Shown here one piece after another: positions 3,139 to 59,997 of a stretch of 64,000 bases of DNA. The first letter of the stretch is position 1. Every line of letters begins with the position of its first letter. The notes beneath the pieces are model-generated. The model did no database searches and was not told where the DNA came from. It saw nothing but the letters and a program-made list of their open reading frames with translations. The position numbers were made by a program, and so were the translations under genes. Where the stretch lies: the sequence record OL310488.1, one strand, 5' to 3'. The DNA comes from Escherichia phage EC101.

Positions 3139-3166
3139 GGGCTTCGGCCCTTAACTAAGGAAAATT

Positions 3167-4921: not shown

Positions 4922-5119
4922 ATGAAGCGTAAACGCAGTGCTTTTACATTTATTGAATGGTTTTTCGATAATATTTTTCCGGCTTTATTCATTTTCATGC
5001 TGATTTTTGCCTTAGGTTCAGTTGTAGTTGGAATCTATTTGATGGCAGTAGTCGGAATGGATATTCATCAAAATGGTTTAAAATCTGTGGTTGAAACAAT
5101 TTGGAACGGTGTAAAATGA
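4922..5119 (+). CDS. small membrane protein (65 aa)
   Basis: GAGGAAAAT-ATG; long hydrophobic segment FPALFIFMLIFALGSVVVGIYLMAVVG. Confidence 0.5.
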   Translation: MKRKRSAFTFIEWFFDNIFPALFIFMLIFALGSVVVGIYLMAVVGMDIHQNGLKSVVETIWNGVK

Positions 5120-5234
5120 TGAATTTGCTGAGCGGTTGGTTTTATATTCTTATGTTTTACATTGGTGCAAATTTCCCATATTGGATGGGATGGTCAACAA
5201 CTGCATTTGGATTTTATACTCCCTGAGGTGAATT

Positions 5235-5450
5235 ATGAAAATCTTTAAAGATGTAAAAGTTGGTGAAATTTTCTGTTTAGATAACGGTGATCAGTTAATT
5301 CGTATTTCACCTCTTAAGAGCACTAGCGAGAAACCGACAGTTAATGCTACTTTAGCAAATAACAGTAATGAACGTTTCTGTATTGAAAATGATACTGAAA
5401 CTTATACCGTAGAAGAGTTTTGGGAATTGAGCGTCGACTGCGACGATTAA
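5235..5450 (+). CDS. hypothetical protein (71 aa)
   Basis: GAGGTG SD before ATG; no recognisable domain. Confidence 0.5.
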
Positions 5451-5508
5451 TTTAATGGCCGCGTATTCATGCGGCCATGGAGTAGAAAATAATTTAGAGG
5501 AAATTAAT

Positions 5509-5967
5509 ATGAAATACATGACTGTTACTGATCTGAACAACGCAGGCGCTACTGTTATTGGTACAATCAAGGGTGGTGAGTGGTTTTTGGGAACTCCGCA
5601 TAAAGATATTTTATCTAAACCTGGATTTTACTTTTTAGTAAGTAAATTAGATGGTCGTCCATTTAGTAATCCATGCGTGTCTGCACGATTTTATGTAGGT
5701 AATCAGCGTTCTAAGCAAGGATTCAGTGCAGTTCTAAGTCATATTCGTCAACGTCGGTCTCAGCTTGCACGTACTATTGCAAATAACAATGTTCCATACA
5801 CAGTATTTTATCTTCCTGCTTCTAAGATGAAACCTCTGACGACAGGATTTGGAAAAGGTCAGTTAGCTTTGGCGTTTACTCGTAACCATCATTCTGAGTA
5901 TCAAACACTTGAAGAAATGAACCGTATGTTGGCTGATAATTTTAAATTCGTTTTGCAGGCATATTAA
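5509..5967 (+). CDS. ndd: nucleoid disruption protein
   Basis: about 152 aa from the SD-supported ATG (GAGG 8 nt upstream); sequence [18 protein letters not shown]... matches T4 Ndd as recalled. Confidence 0.8.
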
Positions 5968-6047
5968 TGAGTAATTTCCATAACGAACATGTGATGCAGT
6001 TCTATCGTAACAATCTTAAAACTAAAGGCGTCTTCGGACGCCAGTGA
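5967..6047 (+). CDS. stp: Stp peptide (26 aa; in T4 it activates the host PrrC anticodon nuclease)
   Basis: translation [26 protein letters not shown] matches T4 Stp as recalled; start overlaps ndd stop (TAATG); below ORF-track length threshold. Confidence 0.8.
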
Positions 6048-6054
6048 GGAAAAT

Positions 6055-6213
6055 ATGAATATTGCAAAATTATTAGGAGTTATTTCATTTATTTGTTGGA
6101 TAGTAGCATGTGTTTTAACTATCTGTATTGATGCCAGCAGTGTGTTTTCGCAAGCTTTAGCTCAGGGTATGTGTGCATATTTAACATTTGTGTTGTTATC
6201 TACTAATGATTAA
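6055..6213 (+). CDS. small membrane protein (52 aa), possible ac (acridine sensitivity) equivalent
   Basis: GAGGAAAAT-ATG; hydrophobic; T4 ac is a 51-aa membrane protein lying between stp and gene 52, but I cannot verify its sequence from memory. Confidence 0.4.
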   Translation: MNIAKLLGVISFICWIVACVLTICIDASSVFSQALAQGMCAYLTFVLLSTND

Positions 6214-6346
6214 GAAAATCTTGGGCTATTCATTAGCCCTTGCTATTTTATTGATAGCATTATATTACGGAATAATGTTCGGATTAATTCAAGTCGTGCT
6301 TTTCATTTCTGATGTTATTATGGCACTACATTCACTAGTATGGTAA
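6206..6346 (+). CDS. small hydrophobic peptide (46 aa)
   Basis: ATG overlapping the preceding ORF end; ends 4 nt before the gene 52 start; entirely hydrophobic. Confidence 0.3.
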   Translation: MIKKILGYSLALAILLIALYYGIMFGLIQVVLFISDVIMALHSLVW

Positions 6347-6350
6347 ATTT

Positions 6351-7679
6351 ATGCAACTGAATAATCGTGATTTAAAAAGTATCATTGATAATGAAGCATT
6401 GGCTTATGCTATGTACACGGTTGAAAATCGTGCCATTCCAAATATGATTGACGGATTTAAGCCAGTTCAACGATTTGTTATTGCTCGAGCTCTTGATTTG
6501 GCACGAGGAAATAAAGATAAGTTTCACAAACTCGCTTCTATCGCAGGCGGTGTAGCGGACCTTGGATATCATCATGGTGAAAACTCTGCGCAAGACGCAG
6601 GTGCTTTGATGGCTAACACTTGGAATAATAACTTTCCTCTGTTAGACGGTCAAGGAAACTTTGGTTCTCGTACTGTCCAAAAGGCGGCAGCAAGTCGTTA
6701 TATTTTTGCTCGTGTAAGTAAAAATTTCTATAACGTATATAAAGATACTGAATATGCTCCAGTACATCAAGATAAAGAACACATTCCGCCTGCTTTCTAT
6801 TTGCCTATTATTCCTACTGTTCTTCTTAATGGCGTTTCCGGTATTGCAACTGGTTATGCAACTTACATTCTTCCTCATAGTGTTTCTTCTGTCAAGAAAG
6901 CTGTACTGCAAGCTCTTCAAGGAAAGAAAGTAACTAAACCGAAGGTAGAATTCCCAGAATTTCGTGGTGAAGTCGTTGAAATTGATGGGCAATATGAAAT
7001 TCGTGGAACATATAAGTTTACTTCACGAACTCAAATGCATATCACTGAGATTCCATATAAGTATGATCGTGAAACTTATGTGAGTAAAATCTTAGACCCG
7101 CTTGAAGATAAAGGCTTCATTACATGGGATGATGCTTGTGGTGAGCATGGCTTTGGCTTCAAAGTTAAATTCCGAAAAGAATACTCTTTGAGCGATAATG
7201 AAGAAGAACGCCATGCAAAAATTATGAAAGACTTCGGGTTGATTGAGCGTCGTTCCCAGAATATTACCGTCATTAATGAGAAAGGAAAGCTGCAAGTTTA
7301 CGATAATGTAGTTGATTTAATCAAAGACTTCGTTGAAGTTCGTAAAACTTATGTCCAAAAACGAATTGATAACAAAATCAAAGAAACTGAATCAGCATTT
7401 CGTTTAGCTTTTGCCAAGGCACATTTCATTAAGAAAGTAATTTCAGGTGAAATTGTTGTACAAGGTAAAACTCGCAAAGAACTGACCGAAGAACTTTCTA
7501 AAATTGATATGTATTCTTCTTATGTTGATAAACTAGTTGGAATGAACATTTTTCATATGACTTCCGACGAAGCAAAGAAACTTGCTGAAGAAGCTAAAGC
7601 CAAAAAAGAAGAAAACGAATATTGGAAAACTACTGATGTAGTTACAGAATACACCAAAGATTTAGAGGAAATCAAATGA
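6351..7679 (+). CDS. 52: DNA topoisomerase II medium subunit
   Basis: 442-aa ORF, length and sequence consistent with T4 gp52; gyrase A-like breakage-reunion region. Confidence 0.95.
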   Translation: MQLNNRDLKSIIDNEALAYAMYTVENRAIPNMIDGFKPVQRFVIARALDLARGNKDKFHKLASIAGGVADLGYHHGENSAQDAGALMANTWNNNFPLLDGQGNFGSRTVQKAAASRYIFARVSKNFYNVYKDTEYAPVHQDKEHIPPAFYLPIIPTVLLNGVSGIATGYATYILPHSVSSVKKAVLQALQGKKVTKPKVEFPEFRGEVVEIDGQYEIRGTYKFTSRTQMHITEIPYKYDRETYVSKILDPLEDKGFITWDDACGEHGFGFKVKFRKEYSLSDNEEERHAKIMKDFGLIERRSQNITVINEKGKLQVYDNVVDLIKDFVEVRKTYVQKRIDNKIKETESAFRLAFAKAHFIKKVISGEIVVQGKTRKELTEELSKIDMYSSYVDKLVGMNIFHMTSDEAKKLAEEAKAKKEENEYWKTTDVVTEYTKDLEEIK

Positions 7680-33725: not shown

Positions 33726-35313
<1,588 letters not shown>

Positions 35314-36748: not shown

Positions 36749-37966
<1,218 letters not shown>

Positions 37967-37967
<1 letters not shown>

Positions 37968-42126: not shown

Positions 42127-42155
42127 GGACTCCTTCGGGAGTCCTTTTTTATTTT
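42127..42155 (+). terminator. intrinsic terminator (GGACTCC-TTCG-GGAGTCC followed by T-run)
   Basis: 7-bp stem, UUCG loop, TTTTTTATTTT. Confidence 0.85.
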
Positions 42156-59984: not shown

Positions 59985-59997
59985 AGGGCCGAAGCCC

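Follow-up and report, generated by a model that had tools for sequence, protein, structure and literature searches.

T4 is the phage in which the conflict between Stp, PrrC, Pnk and Rnl1 was unraveled, starting in the 1980s. T4 mutants in pnk or rli do not grow on prr+ hosts, and suppressors of these mutants define the gene stp (PMC3014915). The gene for the nuclease, PrrC, belongs to the host and lies within hsdM-hsdS-prrC-hsdR, the EcoprrI type IC locus, and the tRNA cut by PrrC is healed and sealed by Pnk and Rnl1 (PMC3014915). Stp relieves restriction by type IC enzymes (EcoprrI, EcoR124I) and not by type IA enzymes. Its loss-of-function mutations are clustered in residues 4–14, and deletion of the last 8 stp codons leaves both activities only moderately lower (PMC3014915). 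In a 2025 review, the way in which Stp inhibits EcoprrI was described as 'unknown, perhaps through physical interaction' (PMC12707154).

The window analyzed here, that is, the whole stretch of 64,000 nucleotides, contains a locus of this kind, with the following features:

ndd, 5509..5967, + strand: nucleoid disruption protein; PF06591 (Phage_T4_Ndd) at 317.8 bits; stop codon TAA at 5965..5967

stp, 5967..6047, + strand: 26-amino-acid peptide; identity with T4, PF08133, phrog_6763

C(UUCG)G tetraloop hairpin GGCGTCTTCGGACGCC, 6027..6042, + strand: six Watson-Crick pairs, in stp codons 21–26

ac, 6055..6213, + strand: acridine resistance membrane protein; phrog_2501 at E 3.7e-25; the equivalent place is occupied by ac in T4 and RB27

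The stp frame runs on the + strand from the ATG at 5967 to the TGA at 6045..6047 (26 codons), and the A of its ATG, at 5967, is also the last base of the ndd stop codon (TAATG). An earlier reading made from the sequence only had taken the peptide overlapping the ndd stop for T4 Stp and had proposed an alignment with T4 stp as the check. This match proved exactly right: the window peptide is 100% identical to T4 Stp (NP_049878) over all 26 residues. At the DNA level, 80 of the 81 nucleotides are the same as in T4, the sole change being synonymous (His8, CAC to CAT), and the flanks align without gaps. In the T4 record (NC_000866.4), stp lies at 165505..165585 and carries the product name 'activator of host PrrC lysyl-tRNA endonuclease'.

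Membership in the family PF08133 (Nuclease_act) was judged by a score above the curated gathering threshold across the full 26-position model. The window peptide scores 75.3 bits against a cut-off of 25, with residues 1–26 on model positions 1–26, and it is also matched by PHROG 6763, which bears the same name (E 4.4e-21). Its N-terminal 18 residues are kept, including positions 4–14, the region of the suppressor mutations (PMC3014915), and the comparison with T4 Stp found neither a frameshift nor a substitution in residues 4–14. Every defining feature of the Stp family that can be tested in sequence is present here. We are nearly certain that 5967..6047 is stp, carried by a T4-like phage (Tequatrovirus) and unchanged from T4 at the protein level; no evidence speaks against this identity.

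The length of 26 codons alone is no evidence for a gene, because 31 open reading frames of at least 20 amino acids overlap the same 2.2 kb (5000..7200). This abundance of short frames, together with the omission of stp from most public annotations, would fit a reading in which the frame is an untranslated chance frame and the conserved sequence matters at the RNA level alone, as hairpin and ac ribosome-binding site. The behavior of the peptide in unrelated siphoviruses speaks against it, since there the peptide is kept while the codons drift. Comparison of the window stp with the copy in K1ind2 gives synonymous-only differences in 11 of 25 codons and 2 amino acid changes; comparison with the copy in Rtp gives 9 synonymous-only codons and 5 replacements. 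Both siphovirus copies are without the hairpin and lie in another genomic context. Additionally, missense suppressors inside the same frame defined stp in T4 genetics (PMC3014915).

Read from these codon comparisons, the balance of synonymous and replacement changes over a long divergence marks purifying selection on the Stp peptide. Because selection at the peptide level is seen with different neighbors and without the hairpin, the chance-frame and RNA-only readings are ruled out. The chance frame was rejected on the synonymous and replacement counts together with the published T4 genetics, and we give it practically no weight. The peptide is also widespread: a tblastn search of a phage collection finds it in 817 records, 422 of them at at least 99% identity.

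The first 25 kb of the window are 99.3% identical to Yersinia phage PYps35T (Tequatrovirus). The annotation of PYps35T passes from an ndd homologue to the acridine-resistance gene, and stp is absent from it. The gene is annotated in the records of T4, RB27, RB68 and ACG-C40. Sampling of the tblastn ranking in even steps gave 31 rows with full coverage of the peptide and at least 96% identity, of which 2 name stp; of the best 30 DNA matches, 3 name it. The earlier reading had called the peptide unannotated. This holds for the nearest public record, PYps35T, and for most sampled Tequatrovirus records, and it is a fair description of common practice because stp is named in so few of the sampled rows (2/31 and 3/30).

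The window stp is an already known T4 gene, and the case is one of an annotation gap and not of a discovery. With its 26 codons, stp is missed by gene callers in most Tequatrovirus records, including the nearest relative of the window. Surveys of anti-restriction factors or defense triggers that start from deposited annotations therefore undercount it. PF08133, used in a pass that is aware of short open reading frames, recovers the gene reliably. No new biology is added by this locus, as Stp, PrrC, Pnk and Rnl1 make up a textbook phage-host conflict.

The gene order ndd-stp-ac-52.1-52, in which the last gene, 52, encodes a topoisomerase subunit, is common to the window, T4 and RB27, and the records of both phages name stp. 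The stop codon of stp (TGA) overlaps the ac ribosome-binding site TGAGGAAAATATG. Translation of stp may be coupled to that of ndd, because the overlap TAATG is common to both. The start of ndd can be placed as in T4, at 5509 (152 amino acids), or at the upstream in-frame ATG annotated in RB27, which here lies at 5455 (170 amino acids). A perfect 8-bp inverted repeat, ATGGCCGC-GTATTCAT-GCGGCCAT, is located at 5455..5478 between ndd.1 and ndd, and the upstream ATG falls within it. Another inverted repeat, GGGCTA-TTCAT-TAGCCC, lies at 6223..6239 inside the overlap of ac and 52.1 and is flagged as terminator-like on both strands.

Hairpins of the C(UUCG)G type in T4 mRNA are typically intercistronic. 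T4 mRNA is where this tetraloop was discovered, and it attracted notice for its extraordinary stability (Tuerk et al. 1988, as cited in PMC4371310). The strong hairpin that the sequence-only reading had placed at 6027..6042, overlapping the 3' end of stp, has exactly these coordinates. Folded alone, GGCGUC-UUCG-GACGCC reaches −10 kcal/mol with six Watson-Crick pairs and accounts for 97% of the ensemble, and the same stem is recovered when 86 nt of context are folded. The UUCG loop is closed by a C:G pair on this stable stem, and the hairpin ends 3 nt upstream of the ac Shine-Dalgarno sequence GAGG (6046..6049). Thus the stp hairpin is a member of the known class. It resembles the C(UUCG)G hairpins of T4 mRNA in its C:G-closed UUCG loop, its G+C-rich stem and the adjoining ribosome-binding site, and differs from them in lying inside a coding sequence (stp codons 21–26). 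In the literature covered, we found no statement of this placement of the stp hairpin within a coding sequence.

Hairpins of this kind are frequent in the window. For TTCG loops on stems of 6 or more pairs the count is 12 against 1.5 expected, and CTTCGG occurs 32 times against 13.6 expected. C(UUCG)G hairpins were located at 3143, 3372, 6033, 42134, 46930, 49067 and 63968 on the + strand and at 59993 and 16233 on the − strand. Those at 3143, 3372 and 6033 (+) and 59993 (−) stand just before Shine-Dalgarno-like sequences; terminator-like T runs follow those at 42134 and 46930 (+) and 16233 (−). The covariance models of Rfam 15 identified no family in 5000..7000, the sole match being a chance-level one to TarB (6169..6250; 20 bits against a gathering threshold of 80).

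It is conceivable that the stp hairpin is an intrinsic terminator, either of the early + strand transcript after stp or of antisense transcripts on the − strand. A consensus scan does find a terminator-like arrangement on the − strand, GGCGTCCGAAGACGCC then TTTAGTTTTA, and the − strand version of the hairpin folds to −9.1 kcal/mol. However, the T tract on that strand is weak and interrupted, the scan is permissive (5 sites against 1.5 expected in 2.5 kb), and the specially stable UUCG loop exists on the + strand only. On the + strand, the tail after the stem is AGUGAGGAAAAUAUG, which has no U tract, and the next gene begins 13 nt downstream. An intrinsic terminator on that strand was sought as a U tract right after a G+C-rich hairpin; the stem is followed instead by AGUGAGGAAAAU, and the scan has no + strand entry here. 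Because no U tract follows the stem, the reading as a + strand intrinsic terminator was rejected. The same type of hairpin also precedes other + strand ribosome-binding sites. Taking both strands together, we consider termination a very unlikely role for this hairpin.

With degenerate DNA patterns we picked out 40 further loci in IMG/VR and in metagenomes that encode the Stp N-terminus. All 20 distinct T4-like haplotypes that have the GVFGR tail retain the six pairs. The adjacent residues vary across them: position 19 is T, L or I, position 20 is K, T or I, and position 26 is Q, P, L or a stop. Residues 1–11 are invariant in these 20 haplotypes, which were themselves picked by a pattern spanning residues 3–11. 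Three stem variants occur, namely GGC to GGT, GGA to GGG, and a C-to-T change in the final base of the stem. Each turns a Watson-Crick pair into G·U, so that all the changes are one-sided (GC to GU, UA to UG) and pairing is preserved. The loop is UUUG in one lineage. Across 11 distinct T4-like variants, 66 of 66 pair cells are paired, in a closely related sample in which shuffled columns give the observed values. Synonymous diversity in the haplotype sample is low along the entire stp gene.

A stronger argument than covariation comes from the codon choice in the stem. The stem codons GGC, GUC, UUC and CGC make up 14%, 9%, 27% and 16% of their synonymous families, respectively, in the 32 long open reading frames of the window. 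Given the peptide and the codon usage of the window, the probability of six Watson-Crick pairs is 6.5e-4, and that of the pairs with the UUCG loop (the exact sequence) is 1.75e-4; both values are supportive only, because the test was devised after the hairpin had been seen.

These observations bear on whether the hairpin might be a mere by-product of the GVFGR codons, with no role of its own. Such an origin would agree with the finding that no compensatory double change in the stem occurs among the 20 closely related T4-like haplotypes, a sample in which shuffles do not separate structure from chance, and with the T2-type stp genes, which do without the hairpin. Yet siphoviruses encode the same GVFG stem-free (GGR GTG TTT GGA; 0 kcal/mol), whereas the T4 version combines four codons that are each 9–27% of their family, with the low probability of pairing given above. 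All three observed stem variants, moreover, retain pairing. We regard a by-product of the codons as an unlikely explanation, though one that deserves some weight.

On the preferred reading, the hairpin is probably a lineage-specific mRNA element under selection that is laid over a less constrained Stp tail. Its probable effect is to stabilize or organize the transcript right in front of the ac ribosome-binding site. It might act by making the mRNA more stable, by nucleating folding so that the region of ac initiation stays open, or as a barrier to processing. To a joint reading we give slightly less than even confidence. In it, the hairpin would be a selected RNA element, acting on mRNA stability or at the ac ribosome-binding site, and the rare-codon GVFGR tail of T4-type phages would be fixed by this RNA constraint and not just by what the peptide does; as a separate point, Stp would have spread horizontally.

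Further downstream, the window carries the genes of tRNA repair:

rnlA, 34189..35313, + strand: RNA ligase 1 (tRNA-Lys repair, sealing step); matches 2c5u and 5tt6; RNA_lig_T4_1 and T4_Rnl1_C domains

pseT, 37062..37967, + strand: polynucleotide 5'-kinase/3'-phosphatase (tRNA-Lys repair, healing step); matches 1ltq; AAA_33 and HAD_PNKP domains

Both genes had been described earlier as intact, and full-length matches to the solved T4 proteins bear this out. Between the pseT product and T4 Pnk (1ltq), the match extends over 300 of 301 residues (E 1e-190). The gene begins with tandem ATGs, of which the second, at 37065, is the start equivalent to that of T4. Its assignment as Pnk was based on the P-loop GxxGxGKS, on Asp35, Arg38 and Arg126, and on the phosphatase motif DxDGT, all of which are present. 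When aligned to 1ltq, the motifs read GCPGSGKS (P-loop), NRDDYR, KRNSKRG and FDVDGT (phosphatase), and we take Asp35, Arg38 and Arg126, with this assignment of motifs, to be the catalytic residues of T4 Pnk. Compared with T4 Pnk, the kinase domain of the window protein has a cluster of substitutions (about residues 44–110) and a one-residue deletion; the phosphatase domain is almost identical, and the catalytic motifs are unchanged.

The rnlA product matches T4 Rnl1 (2c5u, 5tt6) over all 374 residues with 5 substitutions (E 1e-253). For RNA ligase 1 we looked for motif I (KxDG) and for the Rnl1-specific C-terminal domain. The protein contains KEDG at residues 99–102 (LTKEDGS, 97–103) and the C-terminal domain at 135.3 bits (Pfam T4_Rnl1_C). 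In T4 Rnl1, Lys99 belongs to this nucleotidyl-transferase motif I. The sequence AAGAGGA is found 6 nt upstream of the rnlA ATG. ARAGORN found no tRNA gene in the whole window, and therefore no phage substitute for tRNA-Lys is provided there.

Because the two sequences are identical, the properties of T4 Stp can be carried over to the window peptide, which is predicted to be an inhibitor of type IC restriction and an activator of host PrrC, as in T4. By the mechanism established in T4, Stp would be made early in infection and would inhibit EcoprrI and other restriction enzymes of type IC. Where the host is prr+, this inhibition would unmask PrrC, the latent anticodon nuclease associated with EcoprrI, and PrrC would then cut tRNA-Lys 5' of the wobble base. 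The pseT enzyme would heal the ends of tRNA-Lys and RNA ligase 1 (rnlA) would reseal them, allowing infection to go on.

Two statements of the earlier reading need to be adjusted. It had credited the window with a full set for tRNA scission and repair. The trigger and the repair enzymes are indeed present; since PrrC is encoded by the host, however, the window holds these parts and not the full scission set. It had also presented Stp as the trigger of PrrC. This activation is known in T4, but Stp is better seen as a peptide directed against type IC restriction and sensed by PrrC than as a factor meant to set off the nuclease. If prrC is absent from the natural hosts of the window phage, as it may be, the anti-restriction role would be the only one of importance there.

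Relatives of Stp beyond the T4 type place the window copy in a wider setting. T2-type Stp (T2, TOPO13) has identical residues 1–18, occupies the same position between ndd and ac, and scores 53.7 bits on PF08133. It differs in its tail, NFGILGFKK or NFGILGSKNS, in its length of 27–28 amino acids, and in having no hairpin (0 kcal/mol). The siphovirus homologues are likewise above the PF08133 threshold, at 52.6 bits for rtp6 of Rtp and 67.4 bits for Kagunavirus K1ind2. The K1ind2 copy (NC_041898, 40077..40154; positions 1501–1578 of locus L007) is unannotated and agrees with the window peptide at 23 of 25 residues. In Rtp, the Stp part of the gene rtp6 (positions 1483–1575 of locus L008) follows a short leader. 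Compared with the window, these two phages have unrelated genomes and neighboring genes, the hairpin is absent, and the tail ends in GVFGK.

Both siphoviruses also encode a protein with a HAD_PNKP phosphatase domain (gp20 in K1ind2, rtp4 in Rtp), and no annotated RNA ligase was found in either genome. In these unrelated siphoviruses, a near-identical Stp is accompanied by a Pnk-like phosphatase alone, with no RNA ligase annotated. This is a hint that Stp moves horizontally between phages as a peptide of general use against type IC restriction and that some phages tolerate or repair the damage done by PrrC in other ways.

Several metagenome loci extend the range of forms. In a siphovirus-type contig of about 4 kb (L017, from 226; L038), stp is fused in frame to the downstream open reading frame, and in relatives of this contig the stop of the one frame and the start of the other overlap in ATGA. 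Three other loci (L029, L032, L048) keep the first 11 residues of Stp and have unrelated tails, for example WYRKRIKEQMLSRKE and WWRHRVKNFEKYRHEWKFSE. As these loci keep the N-terminal residues with unrelated tails, the comparison suggests that the extreme N-terminus of Stp may be the conserved core of a wider family.

The same logic is found in the Ronin model, in which an abortive-infection effector is silenced by type I restriction-modification subunits and is freed when these are bound by a phage anti-restriction protein (10.1101/2023.04.06.535777). The effectors differ between Ronin and Stp-PrrC, and none of the Ronin-type parts is found in the window. The closest described system is that of T4 itself. 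T4 stp encodes the same 26 amino acids, lies in the same position between ndd and ac, overlaps the ndd stop in the same way, and has the same 3' hairpin. The window copy differs from it in nothing of substance and is carried by another Tequatrovirus species, whose nearest relative is PYps35T.
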